Shown: in pieces, positions 9,573 to 19,194 of the stretch | Position numbering within the stretch: the stretch's first letter is position 1 | Layout of the letters: every line of letters begins with the position of its first letter | The notes under the pieces: generated by a model | Database searches by the model: none | Seen by the model: the letters and a program-made list of their open reading frames with translations, nothing else | Told to the model about the DNA's origin: nothing | Origin: a virus | IMG/VR virus record: IMGVR_UViG_3300020473_000020 | Location: 1-64,000 of that record | Strand: one strand, 5' to 3' | Length of the DNA: 64,000 nucleotides | Made by a program: the position numbers and the translations under genes

Positions 9573-10052
9573 TTAAAGTTTAGCTAGCGCGGCTCTGACG
9601 GCTTCGTCAGGCTTTACAAGCGTTTGACGGTCTTCGGGGTACTCCCATTCACCGTCGGGTGAAACAAGTAAATTCTCACTGATACCTGTGTCAGGGCAGC
9701 GTGTCATTGCGAGTCCGAGAGGATGCAGGACTTCTCGGTTTATCCGCTCAATGAGGCCAAGATCACTGGCCTTATTCCAATCTATCGTCTTCATATCAAC
9801 CTGCTGTGGCGGTCGCAACGCAATATCTATGCAGACCCCCATGCCTGATGTGAATTTTAGAAGCATTTCGATAGAGAACAAATGATAGTTACCATTCCTC
9901 AATGAGTTAATTCTTGGCTGCGTTGTTTTTAAAGTGCTGGCCAGTTCCTTCTCAGTTTGACCCGACTCATTCATCAGATTGACCAAGTACTCGGCGACTT
10001 TTGATTTTAACGCCTGTAAGTCTTGTCTAACCTCAGTGCTCGCTTCTATCAA
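9573..10052 (-). CDS. XRE-family HTH protein fused to a conserved phage domain
   Basis: TEKELASTLKTTQPRINSL..FSIEML HTH; C-terminal DLGLIERINREVLHPLGLA. Confidence 0.7.
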   Translation of the reverse strand: MIEASTEVRQDLQALKSKVAEYLVNLMNESGQTEKELASTLKTTQPRINSLRNGNYHLFSIEMLLKFTSGMGVCIDIALRPPQQVDMKTIDWNKASDLGLIERINREVLHPLGLAMTRCPDTGISENLLVSPDGEWEYPEDRQTLVKPDEAVRAALAKL

Positions 10053-10915
10053 AGTGTTAATTCCCCCGATACAAGGCCATTGTAAATACCGACGACTGAC
10101 TTAAACCCTTTGGCATTTAGCTCTGAGTTTAGAAGTGTGTCAGCAAAGTGCTGTGCTATGCCGCTGTCACCCAGTTGAAGGTCAGTGTGACGTCTCACGT
10201 TACATTGACTGAACAACTCGGGGAACGCCTCACGCAACAATGCCTTTTCAGGTTTGTTAACGGTGTCCCAGTCTGTCGCATCATGAACCTCAGCCCAAAA
10301 CCGTGTGCTGTCGTACGGGCTATGGTAGAACTTACCAAGTGCCATGGTCTCACTCTTGAAGACACGACGCTGGCTCTTCTCCTGACGCCATGTGTGTGCA
10401 CGGTAGCGGTCAAGGTGTTCACGTAGGTGCATGCAGCCTTTCTTGGTGGTAGCGAAGTAGTCATCAGCGCCGATACCCGTCAAGACAACTGACTGCGTTA
10501 TCTCACCGAAGGCATGCGTCATCGGCCAACAGCATTCAATATCGGCCTTACCTGTCAGGCCAAGCTTACCGATTGCGTAGTTAAGATAACGATACAGGTG
10601 CTCTTTGCTGGTGGGTAAGTCAACGCGTGTGAAAGGTACGCCTAAGACCTCGCAGGTGTTCTCTGCGATTTTAACATCAGTGGATTGATGGCCTTCTAGC
10701 GCGAATGAATAGGCTGCTGGTTGCAGTCCTGCCTCAATACAAGCAAAGAGCACTGCATGTGAGTCAATGCCCGAAGAGAGTAGGACAGCCACATCACCAC
10801 TCGGGTAGCAGCTGACCTCGTCCAGTAGTGCCTGACGTACATCGGGCACTATTTTTTGCTCGTATTGTGCACGGACACGCTCACCGATCTTGTGTGTGAT
10901 TTCGGAGCGTGCCAT
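10049..10915 (-). CDS. Stand-alone asparagine synthetase C-terminal-like (PP-loop ATP pyrophosphatase) protein
   Basis: VLLSSGIDS PP-loop, VLTGIGADD, KALLREAF; no glutaminase domain. Confidence 0.75.
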   Translation of the reverse strand: MARSEITHKIGERVRAQYEQKIVPDVRQALLDEVSCYPSGDVAVLLSSGIDSHAVLFACIEAGLQPAAYSFALEGHQSTDVKIAENTCEVLGVPFTRVDLPTSKEHLYRYLNYAIGKLGLTGKADIECCWPMTHAFGEITQSVVLTGIGADDYFATTKKGCMHLREHLDRYRAHTWRQEKSQRRVFKSETMALGKFYHSPYDSTRFWAEVHDATDWDTVNKPEKALLREAFPELFSQCNVRRHTDLQLGDSGIAQHFADTLLNSELNAKGFKSVVGIYNGLVSGELTL

Positions 10916-12677: not shown

Positions 12678-13796
12678 CTAGTACTTTTTAGTACGGCTAC
12701 TTGAGCTGCTTTTAGTTTTACTTGAGCTACCGTAGCTGCTGCTTCGGCTACTGCTACCATAGCTGCTTTTAGTTTTACTTGAGCTACCATAACTGCTGCT
12801 TCGGCTACTGCTGCCGTAGCTGCTCTTATTTGAGTTGTAGCCACTGCTGCGGTTGTTATTAGCTTTCTGCTTGTTTTGATTATTGTAGCTAGTGTGTTTA
12901 GAAGATTGTTTCTGGCCTGAGTATGACTTATCTTTTGGCGCGTTACCGTACGCGGTGCGGCGTGCGTTATCACGGCTAAGTGTTAGCCCCTTACTTTGCT
13001 GTGCTTTGGCCTCTTTTTCTTTCTGGGCTTTCTGCTCAGCGACTTTCTTGGCATGGGCAGCTTTATCACGGGCACTTTGCTCTTTACGGCGTTGTAGTTC
13101 TTTTTGTTCAGAAACCTTTTTAGCGTGGGCTGCTTTGTCTTTGGCGCTTTGGGCTGCACGGCGATCAGCTTCTGATTGTGTGATCGTCTTCCCTTTTTTA
13201 TCGGTTGTTAAACCTGTTTTACCTTGGGCTTTGGCCAGCTTCGCCTCGGCTTCGTATTGCTTCTTCTTTGCTTTCCACATATCGCGTTCAGCTTTAGCAG
13301 CCTTTGCGCGTGACTCGTACTCTGATTGTGAAAGGGTACGACCGTCGCGGCCTGTAGCATGCTCTACGACAATAACGTCTTTTTTCCATCCACCACGGTG
13401 CTTACGATCCCAATCGTCGCGTGACAGGGCTACTGCAAGCGCTGAGGCAGCAATGACACCTGTGGCCACTTGATAATCAAGGTACGAACGTGTTTGAGCA
13501 GCTTGTACACTGTCTTCGTTATGCCAGCGCCAGTTACCGAAGGTGTCCCAGTAACCGTACTGTAGGTTACCACGGTAGTCCACGTAGTTACCTGCCGCGA
13601 TAGGGGCAACAGGTCGAGGCTGGCTATAATAAGCAAGCTTTTGCTCGTGTGCCATTTCCTTTTCAGCAAGGTCTTGGCCAGATTGGATTTTGGCTAGTTT
13701 GATTTCATGTTCGCGTTGTAGTTGCTCTTCGCTCTTTCCACAACCTGTCAGTACTAAGGCCGCAGCTAGACCGACTAATGCTAGTAGTCTTTTCAT
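12678..13796 (-). CDS. Lipoprotein with Lys/Ala-rich coiled coil and Ser-rich tail
   Basis: Signal peptide with lipobox LTGC; low-complexity C-terminus. Confidence 0.75.
   Translation of the reverse strand: MKRLLALVGLAAALVLTGCGKSEEQLQREHEIKLAKIQSGQDLAEKEMAHEQKLAYYSQPRPVAPIAAGNYVDYRGNLQYGYWDTFGNWRWHNEDSVQAAQTRSYLDYQVATGVIAASALAVALSRDDWDRKHRGGWKKDVIVVEHATGRDGRTLSQSEYESRAKAAKAERDMWKAKKKQYEAEAKLAKAQGKTGLTTDKKGKTITQSEADRRAAQSAKDKAAHAKKVSEQKELQRRKEQSARDKAAHAKKVAEQKAQKEKEAKAQQSKGLTLSRDNARRTAYGNAPKDKSYSGQKQSSKHTSYNNQNKQKANNNRSSGYNSNKSSYGSSSRSSSYGSSSKTKSSYGSSSRSSSYGSSSKTKSSSSSRTKKY
12704..12824. repeat. 57-bp intragenic tandem repeat encoding SSYGSSSRSSSYGSSSKTK
   Basis: AGCTGCTTTTAGTTTTACTTGAGCTACC at 12704 and 12761. 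Confidence 0.8.
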
Positions 13797-13923
13797 GTCT
13801 ATGTCTCGATTTGGTTAAATTAATGTGATGCGTTTAAATCACGAGCAGTATGGTAACAACAAAAAGTGCTGCGTGGTAGGGCAGTTTGGAAAAAGATTAG
13901 ATTTTATAAAGGTTGTACAACGG

Positions 13924-14121
13924 TCAGTCGATGATTTTGACTGCTGCTTGATTTCCGTTGGCGTCGATCCCGTTTACTGTGAAATAACCTCGGATCGGGT
14001 TTTGGCTTACTTGGCCATGCAGAGTACATGACAGGCCGTCTTCGAAGGTGACGTGCATTTTGCACATCGTATAAGCTTCTTTTGTGAAGCCTTCAAGCTC
14101 TACGTGCTTAACGCGCCTCAT
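13924..14121 (-). CDS. Hypothetical protein
   Basis: Short ORF. Confidence 0.5.
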   Translation of the reverse strand: MRRVKHVELEGFTKEAYTMCKMHVTFEDGLSCTLHGQVSQNPIRGYFTVNGIDANGNQAAVKIID

Positions 14122-14243
14122 TGGGTCAGCTTTGCGCCTTTTTGCCCAGTGAAGGTCGATTACTTCAAGTTTTATAAGATTCTCCTTGTACTTGATTCAT
14201 TCGTATTGTTGCGCAGTCGTGCGACTAGACAGGCCGCAACCAT

Positions 14244-14282
14244 GCGGTACCCCTCTGGGACTCGAACCCTTAACCAGCGCCT
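14244..14282 (-). pseudogene. tRNA remnant (T-arm and 3' strand only)
   Basis: GGGTTCGAGTCCC T-loop at the distal end of the tRNA cluster; no matching 5' half seen. Confidence 0.35.
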
Positions 14283-14367
14283 CTATCGCAATTAACTTTT
14301 TTGCTGGCGACTACGCAACGGAGTATAAGCGATACTATCGCTAAATGTCGAGAGAATAAAGAGAAAG

Positions 14368-14445
14368 TGGTCGGCCGCGAAGGATTTGAACCTTCGACCA
14401 ATTGGTTAAAAGCCAACTGCTCTAACCTGACTGAGCTAGCGGCCG
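14368..14445 (-). tRNA. tRNA-Lys(UUU)
   Basis: Cloverleaf CGGCCGC..GTTGG CT TTT AA CCAAT..GGTTCAAATCC..GCGGCCG A CCA. Confidence 0.93.
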
Positions 14446-14459
14446 ACATAAAAAGAGGT

Positions 14460-14534
14460 TGGACTAGGCGAGGATTTGAACCTCGCGTCCCGACCCTTCA
14501 ACCGAGGGCGGCTCTCACACTGAGCTACTAGTCC
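14460..14534 (-). tRNA. Atypical tRNA-like gene (GUU at anticodon position, G33, 6-bp T stem, no encoded CCA)
   Basis: GGACTAG/CTAGTCC acceptor, GCTC/GAGC D stem, GCCCT-CGGTTGA-AGGGT arm, TTCAAAT T loop. Confidence 0.6.
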
Positions 14535-14540
14535 ACAAAG

Positions 14541-14616
14541 TGGCGGATCCTACTGGGCTTGAACCAGTGACCTCTGGATTAACAGTCCATTGCTCTACCA
14601 ACTGAGCTAAGGATCC
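14541..14616 (-). tRNA. tRNA-Asn(GUU)
   Basis: 76-nt cloverleaf, loop CT GTT AA, CCA encoded. Confidence 0.93.
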
Positions 14617-14626
14617 TAAATAAGTT

Positions 14627-14703
14627 TGGGGTGGCTCACGGGACTCGAACCCGTGACCGACGCGATCACAACGCGTAGCTCTACCAACTGAGCTAGAGCC
14701 ACC
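14627..14703 (-). tRNA. tRNA-His(GUG)
   Basis: Cloverleaf with G-1:C73, loop TT GTG AT, CCA. Confidence 0.95.
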
Positions 14704-14716
14704 ATACCAAAGAAAG

Positions 14717-14792
14717 TGGCGGATCCTACTGGACTTGAACCAGTGGCCTGATCGTTAACAGCGAACTGCTCTACCAACTGAGCTAAGGATCC
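14717..14792 (-). tRNA. tRNA-Asn(GUU), second variant
   Basis: Near-identical body to 14541-14616 with a different anticodon stem. Confidence 0.93.
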
Positions 14793-14797
14793 TAAAT

Positions 14798-14874
14798 TGG
14801 TCGGTGTTGTAGGATTTGAACCTACGACCCCTTCGCCCCAAACGAAGTGCGCTACCAAACTGCGCTAAACACCG
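14798..14874 (-). tRNA. tRNA-Pro(UGG)
   Basis: CGGTGTT.., loop TT TGG GG, ACCA end. Confidence 0.94.
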
Positions 14875-14883
14875 ATTTTAAAT

Positions 14884-14958
14884 TGGTAGGGGCGGCAAGA
14901 CTCGAACTTGCGAATGCTGGAATCAAAATCCAGTGCCTTACCACTTGGCTACGCCCCT
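14884..14958 (-). tRNA. tRNA-Gln(UUG)
   Basis: GCCAAGTGGTAAGGC D arm, loop TT TTG AT, CCA. Confidence 0.93.
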
Positions 14959-15097
14959 TCCATGTTTTAAATAATTACATACTGATTTTTCTTCGTCAAC
15001 ACTTTTTTATAAAAAACTTCAATTAAAACAGTTACTTACATTATCTCAGGCCGAGCGAACCCGCTTTACTTTTTACTTAGCAAAGTCCTGAAACGAC

Positions 15098-15129
15098 AAA
15101 AGCCCCGAGGCGGAAAACCTTGGGGCTTT
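15098..15129 (-). terminator. Attenuator terminator (3:4 hairpin) upstream of the tRNA operon
   Basis: AAAGCCCCAAGG-TTTTCCG-CCTCGGGGCTTTT on the minus strand. Confidence 0.8.
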
Positions 15130-15210
15130 ATGCAAATCAGATTAACTCTAACTTCTATCGCGTAAACACACCAAGACCCGCCAGTGACAGGTCTCGATGA
15201 CACCTGTCAA

Positions 15211-15255
15211 CTACGGTTGATTATTGGGTTGTTTATGCTGATGATTAAAAGTCAT
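15211..15255 (-). CDS. Leader peptide MTFNHQHKQPNNQP
   Basis: ATG ACT TTT AAT CAT CAG CAT AAA CAA CCC AAT AAT CAA CCG TAG; weak AGAG SD-like sequence upstream. Confidence 0.75.
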   Translation of the reverse strand: MTFNHQHKQPNNQP

Positions 15256-15299
15256 TTGCTAAGTTACTCTAACACTAAATAAAAAATCTGTTCGAGTAA

Positions 15300-15557
15300 T
15301 CATAATAGCGTAGGACTAGGGCGTTGTACAACCTTTTCTGGGTCTGGTGCACAGATTTCTATATCGAAACCGCATGAGCGCAGAAGCTGTGTACGATGCG
15401 CTCGCTCATTTTCATAGAACGTATGTGTCGAAAGATAGTGCTGCTTCTCACCTGTCACTTTGTTAACGACCCAGCCACTGAATCGATCAACCTCTATCGT
15501 ATGCGTTGCCGAGTCGGGGAGCTGCGCTAGCTGCTCCCAGTTCATTACCTTCTGCAT
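15300..15557 (-). CDS. Hypothetical phage protein
   Basis: ORF in operon (YLSTHTFY..CGFD). Confidence 0.6.
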   Translation of the reverse strand: MQKVMNWEQLAQLPDSATHTIEVDRFSGWVVNKVTGEKQHYLSTHTFYENERAHRTQLLRSCGFDIEICAPDPEKVVQRPSPTLL

Positions 15558-15862
15558 TACGCTTTCTTCTTGCTGAAAAGTCCTTTGGACTTCTTAACAG
15601 GCTTCTCATCTAGCATTAGGTCAATCACGTACGTGTTGTTGACATGGTCGAGCACACTAATCACAGCATCAAGCATCGCATCGTCAAGCTCGTTGATAAT
15701 GCTGTGTATGTTAGCCTCGCGGTCGTCAGTTGCCGTAAGATGTAAGCGCTGGCACACCTCTTCGATAGCATCGTTTGGCAGACGGTTAGTTAATAAGTCA
15801 CTAAGCTCGTTTAGCGCCTTTTCGTGGGTGTAATTGCCGTAAGCTATGTATCGTCTAGTCAT
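15557..15862 (-). CDS. Hypothetical protein
   Basis: Translationally coupled ORF. Confidence 0.55.
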   Translation of the reverse strand: MTRRYIAYGNYTHEKALNELSDLLTNRLPNDAIEEVCQRLHLTATDDREANIHSIINELDDAMLDAVISVLDHVNNTYVIDLMLDEKPVKKSKGLFSKKKA

Positions 15863-16271
15863 TGTCTGTTTTCCCCTTGTTTAAGAATGCGGCTAGTTCG
15901 TCTTCGCCATTCACCGAGGTTTTAATTACCTTGCCTCGGCCGTCTTCTAACTTACGGTCAAAGTAAGCGGCAACCAGTCTATCGAATGAGTCAAGCTCTT
16001 CCTCTAGCAGGTCTTCCATGTGACTGCATAACTGCGCCATCAGACTCTCATGGTTCGCAGCCTCTGCATGTGGCTCTGCGCCAAAGCCCAGCAAAAGAAA
16101 TGCTTCAAGTTCTTTGTCTGTGCACTCGGCTAGGGCTAGTGCCTTGGCCATGATGTAGCTCGCCATGTCTACTTCGTAATTATCTTTAGTATCAGTCATT
16201 ATTTCTTCTTCACGTGTTTCGTTACCACTTTGCTGATCACTTCTCTCAGCATCTGTGGTGCATTGGGACAA
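15855..16271 (-). CDS. Hypothetical acidic protein
   Basis: ORF; start may be MTDTK. Confidence 0.5.
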   Translation of the reverse strand: MSQCTTDAERSDQQSGNETREEEIMTDTKDNYEVDMASYIMAKALALAECTDKELEAFLLLGFGAEPHAEAANHESLMAQLCSHMEDLLEEELDSFDRLVAAYFDRKLEDGRGKVIKTSVNGEDELAAFLNKGKTDND

Positions 16272-16371
16272 ATTCGTTTTACTTCGTCGCGAAGCTCATT
16301 CACCAGCGCCGCTACCTCGTGGTCGGCCAGCTGTGTCGTACGCTTGTTCGTTTCGGCTGCCATAAAATACC

Positions 16372-16773
16372 TTAAATCGTGCTATTAGGGTTTCGTTTGT
16401 AGCGCCACATATCCAACCAGTTACCGCAAGTATTCACTAGGTCATAGCGTACGCTCACAAACAGGTCTTTGATGCTATCAAGTTCCCACGGCATTACTTC
16501 ACGTATGATGTAGTAGGGAGCAGGGCGCTCAGTATCAACCCACGTCTCATCGAAAAAGACACCATCATTGCTATTGATAAAGTGGATCATCCCATTATGG
16601 GTACCTGCCCAAACGAGCCATACCTTGTTCGCACGGCCAGCTCTGTAAGCCTGCACCGCATTGTCAAAGCATAACTGATTATTGAAAGCAAACTGACTAT
16701 GACTGAATGACTCTGGGTCGATGGGCTTATAGTTGCGCTTTATGTGTCGAAAGACTTTCTCAGTTAGCTTCAT
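16372..16773 (-). CDS. Hypothetical protein
   Basis: ORF in operon. Confidence 0.55.
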   Translation of the reverse strand: MKLTEKVFRHIKRNYKPIDPESFSHSQFAFNNQLCFDNAVQAYRAGRANKVWLVWAGTHNGMIHFINSNDGVFFDETWVDTERPAPYYIIREVMPWELDSIKDLFVSVRYDLVNTCGNWLDMWRYKRNPNSTI

Positions 16774-18018: not shown

Positions 18019-19194
18019 CTACCCTATGATCACGTGTGGCACAAAGCGTGACGTATCTTTTGTCACAGCGGTATCATCTTCACGGATAGTAAGGCCACAG
18101 GCTTTATCGCCAATGACCCACGAACCGATTAGGGTGTAGTCGTCACCGAATTTAGGCAATGAGTAGAACTTTTGAGCAACCATAGTGTGGTTACCGTAGT
18201 CACCCTCAACGGCTTCGACAACCTCGCCTGAGTCCAAGATCGTGATATTTGCGCCCTCACGGCTGTGTACAGGCTTAGTCACAAAGTGGTCACCTAAATC
18301 CTCTTTCTCTTCGCCCACGAAGTACGCTGGCAGAAGGTTAGGGTGGTTCGGGTAACGCTCCCACAACAACGGTAGGATCCCTTTGTTTAATAGCACTTTC
18401 CATGGCGGCTCGAAGAAGTGCATGTCTACGAGGCTCAGGTATTTACCGTAAGTATCTTCGAATGCGTGTTCCCATGGGTACAGCATGAAAAGGTTACGGA
18501 TAATGTTGTGCTCTAAGTCCGTGAAGCATGTCTCAGGCTCGAAGGCTAGGCCAATATCGTCAACGTAGATAAACGCTGTCTGTAGCCCCGCTTGGTGGGC
18601 ACAATCACGTAAGTAGTCAACGGTGGCCTTATCTTCTGATGAGCCTTTACAGCTTGCAAAGTACATGACGGTCTCTTTGTCTTCCATGTCTTCATAGATG
18701 GCATAGAAACGGTCAATCAACTTCTCTTGGATGCTATTGAATTGGTCAGTTGACGCAGGCAATTTGCCCGCGTCCACCTGCTCTTGAAGCCAGACCCACT
18801 GGAAGTAGGCCGCTTCGTAGATAGAGGTTGGTGTCTGACCATTCATTTCAAGTAGCTTAGGCGGGTTTTTGCCATCATACGCAAAGTCCATACGACCATA
18901 TAGCGTCTTGTCTTGCTTTTTCCAGCTGCGTTTAACCCACGTACGTAGATTGTGTGGAACTTCAAGCTTATCAAGTAGCTCGTCGCTCTGTACCACTTCA
19001 TCAACCAGTTTAAGGAACATTTGATTGATCTCGTTCGTAGCAGCTTCGAGGTGTTCTTCGATCTGCTTTAACGTGAACTGGTAGTAGCGGCTCTCATCCC
19101 AATAGACTTCACCATCAATTGTATGGAAGTTAAAGCCCAGCTTTTTAGCCAATTCGTCTAAATGTGGTCGTACGGTTGAATCTCTGCGTATCAT
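18019..19194 (-). CDS. yjfC: Glutathionylspermidine synthase family ATP-grasp ligase (YjfC/YgiC-like)
   Basis: YWDESRYY, LYGRMDF, KLLEMNGQTPTS, QFNSIQEKL, LYPWE, EPPWK, SREGANI, IGSW, FVPH. Confidence 0.9.
   Translation of the reverse strand: MIRRDSTVRPHLDELAKKLGFNFHTIDGEVYWDESRYYQFTLKQIEEHLEAATNEINQMFLKLVDEVVQSDELLDKLEVPHNLRTWVKRSWKKQDKTLYGRMDFAYDGKNPPKLLEMNGQTPTSIYEAAYFQWVWLQEQVDAGKLPASTDQFNSIQEKLIDRFYAIYEDMEDKETVMYFASCKGSSEDKATVDYLRDCAHQAGLQTAFIYVDDIGLAFEPETCFTDLEHNIIRNLFMLYPWEHAFEDTYGKYLSLVDMHFFEPPWKVLLNKGILPLLWERYPNHPNLLPAYFVGEEKEDLGDHFVTKPVHSREGANITILDSGEVVEAVEGDYGNHTMVAQKFYSLPKFGDDYTLIGSWVIGDKACGLTIREDDTAVTKDTSRFVPHVIIG

Follow-up and report, generated by a model that had tools for sequence, protein, structure and literature searches.

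Results

Most codons of a 14-codon leader match the amino acids of the downstream tRNA genes

This study concerns a candidate regulatory element in a stretch of 64,000 nucleotides (hereafter the window), which is the first 64 kb of the IMG/VR virus record IMGVR_UViG_3300020473_000020; the full record comprises 138,059 nt and is rated 33% complete. On the minus strand of the window, a 14-codon open reading frame (ORF), referred to as the leader, lies upstream of a block of seven tRNA genes, and a hairpin, a strand with alternative pairing partners and a good candidate for an intrinsic terminator are found between the two (Table 1). We propose that this region is an attenuator of the leader-peptide kind, linking the decoding of codons for Asn, His, Gln, Lys, and Pro to the transcription of phage tRNA genes for the same amino acids, and we put the probability of this reading at about 0.58. 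The codon match alone could arise once by chance in a very wide scan; the case is built on a conjunction of features, namely the match itself, the start codon, stop codon, and putative ribosome-binding site, the choice of codons, the predicted terminator, and a switch that depends on ribosome position in folding calculations. What is observed here comprises the features of the sequence with their statistics and the alternative folds that change with ribosome position.

The leader codons are ATG ACT TTT AAT CAT CAG CAT AAA CAA CCC AAT AAT CAA CCG TAG. An earlier note, made from the sequence alone, had described 11 straight Asn, His, Gln, Lys, or Pro codons in this ORF, and these are indeed present and correspond to the amino acids represented in the tRNA block. 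No run for this set, which has a frequency of 0.188, is longer in any of the six frames of the 138-kb record; the other runs in the record include one of eight codons (poly-Asn), six of seven, and 13 of six, and over the whole record the run counts drop about five-fold for each extra codon. Eleven of 13 leader codons fall in the set (binomial p ∼2e-6), the leader being one of 14 short ORFs that lie within 450 nt ahead of the block. Runs of at least 11 codons were absent from 5000 dinucleotide-preserving shuffles of the 341-nt intergenic region (longest run, 8) and from 5000 shuffles of the local A/C-rich 60 nt (longest run, 9), and the latter result means that the match is not explained by local composition. 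The codon match is thus confirmed as real and lies far beyond chance.

For comparison with other phages, ORFs of 6 to 45 codons within 450 nt upstream of a tRNA block were scored by binomial p against the amino-acid set of that block. The smallest p was 0.008 in five distant cultured relatives (24 tRNA blocks, 327 ORFs) and 0.0047 in five other cultured phages (25 tRNA blocks, 314 ORFs), both of which are at chance level. The matched-leader layout is not general among cultured phages.

The seven-gene block holds every tRNA that ARAGORN found in the 138,059-nt record, and the amino acids represented are only Gln, Pro, Asn, His, and Lys. The earlier note had listed six genes (Gln, Pro, Asn, His, Asn, and Lys) and no other amino acid; the restriction to this set holds, whereas the count does not, as ARAGORN gives seven genes. 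Since about two thirds of the genome are missing, these seven tRNAs need not be the full set of the phage. Six of them score 64 to 71 bits against Rfam RF00005 versus 40 bits for the seventh, an odd Asn-like gene with the anticodon loop CGGUUGA, in which G33 replaces the near-universal U33 and position 37 is also G. This gene has a longer variable region and does not encode CCA; possible identities are a decoy, a variant that resists nucleases, and a copy in decay.

Just 3′ of tRNA-Lys, a separate multibranch RNA candidate was seen at 14205–14315 (minus strand), with a 12-bp closing stem, a T-arm-like hairpin (GGGUUCGAGUCCC), and a folding energy of −45.7 kcal/mol (z = −2.2). It is preceded by the promoter-like arrangement TCGACA-18-TATACT at 14351–14322 (minus strand). 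Neither ARAGORN nor Rfam called it, and it could represent the remnant of a tRNA or an element resembling one.

Coding signs in the leader

The genes of this phage favor a GAG-containing ribosome-binding motif (GAGAC, GAGG). GAG starts at positions −14 to −9 in 71 of 139 predicted ATG-start genes, and in 11 of these it starts at −14, as it does in the leader; a ribosome-binding site for the leader ORF is plausible on these grounds. The seven T or G bases of the 33-nt control-codon run are all at third codon positions. Moreover, the less-used synonyms fill all seven of the Asn (three), His (two), and Pro (two) positions, the synonym fractions in 138 predicted genes being 0.38 for AAT, 0.41 for CAT, 0.09 for CCC, and 0.19 for CCG. 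Anticodons GUU, GUG, and UGG decode these four by wobble and, for that reason, the slowest decoding would be expected at these minor codons of the leader. The last sense codon is Pro, directly followed by the stop; since termination is slow in this context, the default state would have the ribosome waiting at the 3′ end of the ORF.

A repeated element was noted in the same region. The motif GUUAGAGU(A/U)AA occurs at 15259–15273, in the leader ribosome-binding region, and again at 15138–15152, in the 3′ strand of the long stem described below (both on the minus strand). About 9 nt beyond the second copy, a TTG opens a 20-codon frame that runs through the terminator, as judged by eye.

RNA elements between the leader and the tRNA genes

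The hairpin, segment 2, and the terminator, all of which the earlier note had described, were found in place. The hairpin, here called P2, is present in the minimum free-energy (MFE) fold and is a candidate for a pause hairpin; at its base, ACU.GGCGG is paired with the final codons of the leader (CCG UAG U). Segment 2 is the putative switch strand; its core, GGCGGGUCUUGG, has three alternative partners, namely the leader codons, the 3′ half of P2, and the 5′ arm plus loop of the terminator. The predicted duplex of segment 2 with the terminator arm (−20.2 kcal/mol) is as strong as the terminator hairpin, and the alternative hairpin that segment 2 forms with the 3′ half of P2 is calculated at −14.9 kcal/mol. 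The terminator has the layout AAAGCCCC-A-AGGU / loop UUUCC / GCCU-C-GGGGCUUU, followed by the U-tract UGUCGUUU, and part of the hairpin is also listed by a terminator scan.

The free RNA from 15270 to 15085 has an MFE of −64.5 kcal/mol (z = −5.08), which was matched by none of 200 shuffles. In this fold, P2 is flanked by a stem in which 15177–15136 pairs with the ribosome-binding site, the start codon, and the control codons, and the terminator stands separate. A cmscan search of 13000–16500 (E ≤ 1) revealed no Rfam leader family, T-box, or other cis-regulatory family; its matches were tRNAs and weak chance hits overlapping tRNAs.

Ribosome position decides the predicted pairing of the terminator arm

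MFE folding of the full-length RNA with a 30-nt ribosome mask was rejected as a test, since the Escherichia coli thrL leader likewise keeps its terminator in it. In the informative assay, the transcript was ended just before the 3′ arm of the terminator and the position of the ribosome was varied. With the transcript cut at 15107, GGCGGGUCUUGG paired with the terminator 5′ arm and loop when the ribosome stood on codons 4, 6, 8, 10, 11, or 12; no such pairing was seen in the free RNA or with the ribosome on codon 13, codon 14, or the stop codon. From codon 13 to the stop, the freed 3′ half of P2 takes segment 2 instead. A scan of codons 4 to 12 gave the antiterminator at all nine positions, with seven of 10 arm bases paired upstream, against none in the free RNA or with the ribosome at codon 14 or the stop.

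Pair probabilities gave a similar picture. The probability that the terminator arm pairs upstream was ∼0.7 for codons 3 to 11 and otherwise ∼0, using 3′ footprints of +11, +14, and +17 nt and transcript ends at 15107 and 15104. For the shortest transcript (end at 15110), it was 0.25 to 0.67 on codons 3 to 9 and near 0 from codon 10 or 11 onward. When only the spacer from the stop codon to the terminator was shuffled, the full logic reappeared in four of 300 sequences, which suggests that the switch is moderately significant by this measure. As a positive control, thrL of E. coli K-12 showed the same three-state pattern in the same assay. The segment-2 pairings that the earlier note had named therefore do form in folding, and the choice among them follows the ribosome in the manner of thrL.

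Table 1. Positions of the leader, the predicted RNA elements, the promoter candidates, and the tRNA genes in the window.
Feature	Position	Strand	Details
85-aa gene, last of a run of small genes	15557–15300	minus	upstream of leader; stop 15302–15300
Leader promoter candidate	15331–15302	minus	TTGTACAA palindrome 15331–15324 and TATTAT 15307–15302
GAG, ribosome-binding-like triplet	15269–15267	minus	starts 14 nt before leader ATG
Leader ORF	15255–15211	minus	14 codons, peptide MTFNHQHKQPNNQP; ATG 15255–15253, TAG 15213–15211
Control-codon run	15246–15214	minus	11 codons, all Asn, His, Gln, Lys, or Pro
Hairpin P2	15216–15178	minus	core 15209–15185, TGACAGGT/ACCTGTCA; −20.0 kcal/mol alone
Segment 2, putative switch strand	15184–15161	minus	pairing core GGCGGGUCUUGG 15182–15171
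G/U-rich segment	15184–15136	minus	between P2 hairpin and terminator
3′ strand of long imperfect stem	15177–15136	minus	predicted duplex with leader −18.3 kcal/mol
Predicted intrinsic terminator	15129–15091	minus	hairpin 15129–15099, −17.8 kcal/mol, then UUUUGUCGUUU
98-nt spacer	between terminator and tRNA block	minus	contains sigma-70-like promoter candidate
Sigma-70-like promoter candidate	14999–14971	minus	TTGACG (14999–14994)-17-TGnAATTAT, A/T tract upstream
tRNA-Gln-ttg	14958–14884	minus	ARAGORN
tRNA-Pro-tgg	14874–14798	minus	ARAGORN
tRNA-Asn-gtt (first)	14792–14717	minus	ARAGORN
tRNA-His-gtg	14702–14627	minus	ARAGORN
tRNA-Asn-gtt (second)	14616–14541	minus	ARAGORN
Odd Asn-gtt-like tRNA gene	14534–14460	minus	ARAGORN
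tRNA-Lys-ttt	14445–14368	minus	ARAGORN

Promoter candidates

The leader promoter candidate reads TGTACA-17-TATTAT (nine of 12 matches in a scan for promoter-like sequences) and overlaps the 3′ end of the 85-aa gene. Its upstream part, TTGTACAA, occurs 93 times in 138 kb versus ∼2.6 expected. Fifty of the 93 copies are not fully within coding sequence in a record that is 90% coding (a five-fold noncoding enrichment), and 41 lie within 100 nt upstream of a gene start, compared with 13% of random positions (a three-fold enrichment). The copies have no −10 element at any fixed distance; the copy at 15331–15324, which lies 69 nt before the leader ATG, has the best −10-like hexamer (TATTAT). Based on this distribution, TTGTACAA is a candidate for a phage-specific promoter or operator motif and, given its combination with TATTAT ahead of the ATG, the leader may have its own transcription start in addition to read-in from upstream.

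The second candidate lies between the terminator and tRNA-Gln. The earlier note had placed a TTGACG −35-like hexamer here, which is correct, and had seen only a weak −10, which is not, as the site is a nine-of-12 match with a TG-extended −10 and a 17-nt spacer. Transcription from it would start a few nucleotides before tRNA-Gln, as is usual for tRNA genes. Promoter-like matches are common by chance (five found versus 3.2 expected in 3 kb); despite this frequency, the position of the site makes it a credible promoter. If it is active, the attenuator would add to tRNA expression and not gate it.

Population variants and the search for relatives

Population data were drawn from Logan contigs only. 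A DNA run, X3, contains a 7534-nt contig that spans the stretch and differs from it by 18 substitutions and one 1-nt deletion over 1227 aligned nucleotides. This variant has no substitution in 15078–15425, where about five would be expected, a suggestive observation although made post hoc. It has six substitutions in 15017–15077, between the terminator and the promoter candidate, and none in 14798–15016. In place of the first tRNA-Asn (14717–14792) it carries 69 other letters, and its leader is identical. In a further run, X9, a contig covers 15222–15600 with 13 substitutions, all of them at or beyond 15333.

A metatranscriptome, X18, yielded a 158-nt contig that is identical to the window from 15275 to 15121 and indistinguishable from DNA. 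Its limits lie 20 nt ahead of the ATG and within the terminator 5′ arm and, while contig ends are not transcript ends, they provide a weak hint of a short terminated leader RNA. X18 gave no cover of 15120–14960 or of 15276–15457, and this lack of cover proves nothing. Other X18 contigs that aligned to the tRNA genes were rejected as tRNAs of other organisms, with four to 12 differences.

Relatives of the element were sought in several ways. A phage collection search with the DNA around the leader gave one 48-nt megablast match, to tRNA-Gln, and none by blastn. Single-protein scans of IMG/VR with the 372-aa and 138-aa neighbors, glutathionylspermidine synthase, and TerL found no relative. The back-translated leader pattern had no match in viral contigs or genome contigs, a scan for the Gln–Pro tRNA junction pattern had none, and the pattern of the 24-nt switch segment had none in genome contigs.

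The source phage and the surrounding genes

The window encodes terminase, a head protease, and the major head protein. TerL shares only 38 to 45% identity with its nearest cultured relatives. A contig of 419,624 nt encodes an identical copy of a neighboring protein, and most of the sequencing runs in which the stretch occurs are marine or seawater metagenomes; on these two grounds, the source is probably a marine giant phage.

The 85-aa protein encoded at 15557–15300 (minus strand), immediately upstream of the leader, is one of a widespread family of small phage proteins marked by an invariant YLSTHTFY and C-G-F motif, and has no Pfam or PHROG match. Relatives are encoded in 142 metagenome-contig stretches and 74 viral-contig stretches, the closest homolog being P0002 (66% identity, on a 2456-nt contig). 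Among the 154 of these loci that were fetched (the best 80 of the 142 metagenome stretches and all 74 viral ones), 14 carry one or two tRNAs, and none has a comparable tRNA block beside the gene.

Further genes in the window encode a nicotinamide phosphoribosyltransferase (765–2387), a PP-loop protein resembling Asn synthase and QueC (10049–10915), which adjoins a Dam methylase, and a glutathionylspermidine synthase-like protein (18019–19194; Pfam E = 2e-142), all on the minus strand.

Discussion

Proposed mechanism

In the mechanism that we propose, the leader ORF would be translated, the ribosome would be coupled to RNA polymerase, and read-through of the terminator, hence tRNA expression, would depend on the attenuator. 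Transcription would arrive from the small-gene operon upstream or begin at the TTGTACAA/TATTAT site (15331–15302). A ribosome that translates through to the Pro-stop would cover the 5′ half of P2; the freed 3′ half would pair with segment 2, and the terminator at 15129–15099 would form. When no ribosome is present, segment 2 and the strand that follows it would be taken up in pairing with the leader, and termination would again be the outcome. Slow decoding of Asn, His, Gln, Lys, or Pro codons would park the ribosome on codons 3 to 12, leaving P2 closed and segment 2 without a partner. Segment 2 could then capture the terminator 5′ arm and loop before the 3′ arm exists, and the polymerase would enter the seven tRNA genes. 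The outcome would be a five-input feedback loop on tRNA supply.

A more specific biological role, which we consider rather unlikely as it stands, is that of an inducible five-input counter-measure to the loss of Asn, His, Gln, Lys, and Pro tRNAs, with replacement tRNAs made on demand. Host tRNAs would be depleted by anticodon nucleases (PrrC, colicin-E5-like enzymes, or the PARIS kind) or by the phage's own host shut-off, ribosomes would stall on the wobble-read leader codons, and the replacements would be transcribed. The odd Asn-like tRNA with its G33/G37 loop might resist cleavage in such a scheme.

Weighing the evidence

Several points weigh against an attenuator. Translation of the leader, termination, and read-through are predictions. 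The codon match has p ∼3e-5 per block, so that one chance case is possible across the very many windows scanned, and the minor-codon and third-position tests were picked post hoc, with the sequence already seen. Conservation is known only from near-identical variants, and the 49 tRNA blocks of ten cultured phages (641 ORFs), which served as negative control, contain no matched leader. In folding, the full-length RNA keeps its terminator in the MFE structure at all 14 ribosome positions, which means that the switch must work kinetically, as that of thrL must too; when the transcript is cut at 15111, codons 4, 6, and 8 are the only ones among those examined that give the antiterminator in the MFE structure. 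The p value from the spacer shuffles is only ∼0.013, and 34 of the 300 shuffles give some antiterminator. Finally, the sigma-70-like promoter candidate at 14999–14971 stands between the terminator and tRNA-Gln and is unchanged in the X3 variant. Because of its location downstream of the terminator, the tRNAs may be made without read-through and, since its transcripts would start before tRNA-Gln, the role of the terminator may be to adjust tRNA output and not to gate it. The earlier note had presented the element as an attenuator that gates the tRNA operon; the architecture stands in silico (putative ribosome-binding site, terminator, and thrL-like switch), whereas the gating may turn out to be modulation, given a credible promoter past the terminator.

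The same points could be read as an ordinary operon terminator followed by a separate tRNA promoter at 14999–14971, with an untranslated mini-ORF whose codon make-up is coincidental. The extended −10, 17-nt spacer, and A/T tract of that promoter candidate, its place a few nucleotides before tRNA-Gln, and its conservation in X3 fit this explanation, as do the constant presence of the terminator in the full-length MFE fold, the absence of a matched leader at all 49 control blocks, and the number of windows in which a codon coincidence could have occurred. Yet promoter-like matches are common by chance (five found versus 3.2 expected in 3 kb), no second run of 11 exists in the 138 kb and none arose in 10,000 shuffles, and a coincidence would have to extend to an ATG, an in-frame stop right after the run, GAG at a spacing that the phage uses, and the less-used codons. 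It would also have to supply wiring to the terminator that depends on ribosome position and that only four of 300 shuffles reproduce, and we therefore regard this explanation as clearly improbable. An equally improbable one, in our view, is a stand-alone gene for a small RNA, a micropeptide, or both, with a transcript of ∼200 nt (∼15295 to ∼15095) that acts in trans and exerts no control in cis. The stretch does have its own promoter-like motif, its own terminator, and a very stable structure (z = −5.08), the contig from the X18 RNA library covers just 15275–15121 (a weak argument), and trans functions of attenuator products have a precedent in rnTrpL/peTrpL, rnTrpL being the released trp attenuator RNA of Sinorhizobium, as far as the part of PMC7968998 consulted describes them. 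However, such a gene leaves unexplained why the residues of the peptide match the neighboring tRNA genes and why segment 2 competes for the terminator arm only under a stalled ribosome, and a trans function would not exclude attenuation in cis. The element could also act as a general sensor of translation speed or coupling, responding to host shut-off or ribosome damage, with codon choice being secondary. A modeled ribosome on codon 3, which encodes Phe and lies outside the set, also gives antitermination, as such a sensor would; a general sensor would nevertheless have no need for an exact match to five amino acids over 11 codons or for less-used, wobble-read codons, and we consider it quite unlikely.

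Significance

If the attenuator operates as proposed, the phage would gauge decoding speed codon by codon and top up specific tRNAs only when needed. This would bear on why phages carry tRNAs, for which codon compensation, host shut-off, and escape from tRNA-cutting defenses come into consideration. The leader would name the tRNAs that the phage expects to run short of, which makes the question testable. Measuring ∼370 nt between its promoter and the first tRNA gene, the element is small, and it can be transferred to a reporter. Should the inducible counter-measure also prove true, it would represent an undescribed class of feedback control of tRNA supply.

Comparison with known systems

Leader-peptide attenuation is the textbook control of amino-acid biosynthesis, and the new aspect here would be its application to tRNA genes, in which case what is sensed and what is produced would both be tRNA. 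Every sequence-level feature of leader-peptide attenuators that could be tested is found in the phage element, the antiterminator being found in silico. Like thrL, whose control codons are Thr and Ile, the element combines a short ORF rich in control codons for more than one amino acid, a predicted intrinsic terminator, and mutually exclusive 1:2, 2:3, and 3:4 pairings among which the position of the ribosome selects; the ilvGMEDA leader likewise has control codons for Ile, Val, and Leu. Unlike these enterobacterial attenuators, the element described here lies in a phage, would control tRNA genes and not biosynthetic enzymes, would take five amino-acid inputs, and has an extra hairpin, P2, that would supply the anti-antiterminator strand. 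The chromosomal pheST attenuator, with a pheM leader peptide of ∼14 residues and Phe as its single input, controls an aminoacyl-tRNA synthetase. It resembles the proposed phage element in that a leader of ∼14 residues gates a gene of the translation apparatus and not a biosynthetic pathway, and differs from it in the gene controlled (a synthetase and not tRNAs) and in the number of inputs (Phe alone versus five). T-box riboswitches also link antitermination to tRNA status and control translation-related genes. However, T-boxes bind uncharged tRNA directly and involve neither ribosome nor ORF, whereas the phage element would be based on both; no T-box was among the cmscan matches.

Full-text literature searches found no published description of leader-peptide attenuation of tRNA genes. 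Phage tRNAs have been proposed or shown to replace depleted host tRNAs under tRNA-targeting defense, according to parts of PMC10264068 and PMC10802454, and the present tRNAs resemble those implicated against anticodon nucleases, PARIS, and retron Ec78 in being phage-borne possible replacements; sensing or inducible control of phage tRNA genes does not appear in those parts of the two papers. The nearest published case that could be checked is the trn operon of Anabaena PCC 7120, a long tRNA array that is induced under translational stress (PMC8421152) and reportedly controlled by the protein repressor TrcR (PMC10272220); the words leader, attenuat, and terminator are absent from the main texts of both reports. 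Like the arrangement proposed here, it is a reserve set of tRNA genes whose expression stays low until impaired translation turns it on. The two differ in that the Anabaena array resides on a bacterial megaplasmid and is reportedly under the repressor TrcR, whereas the array described here belongs to a phage and would be controlled through a leader.

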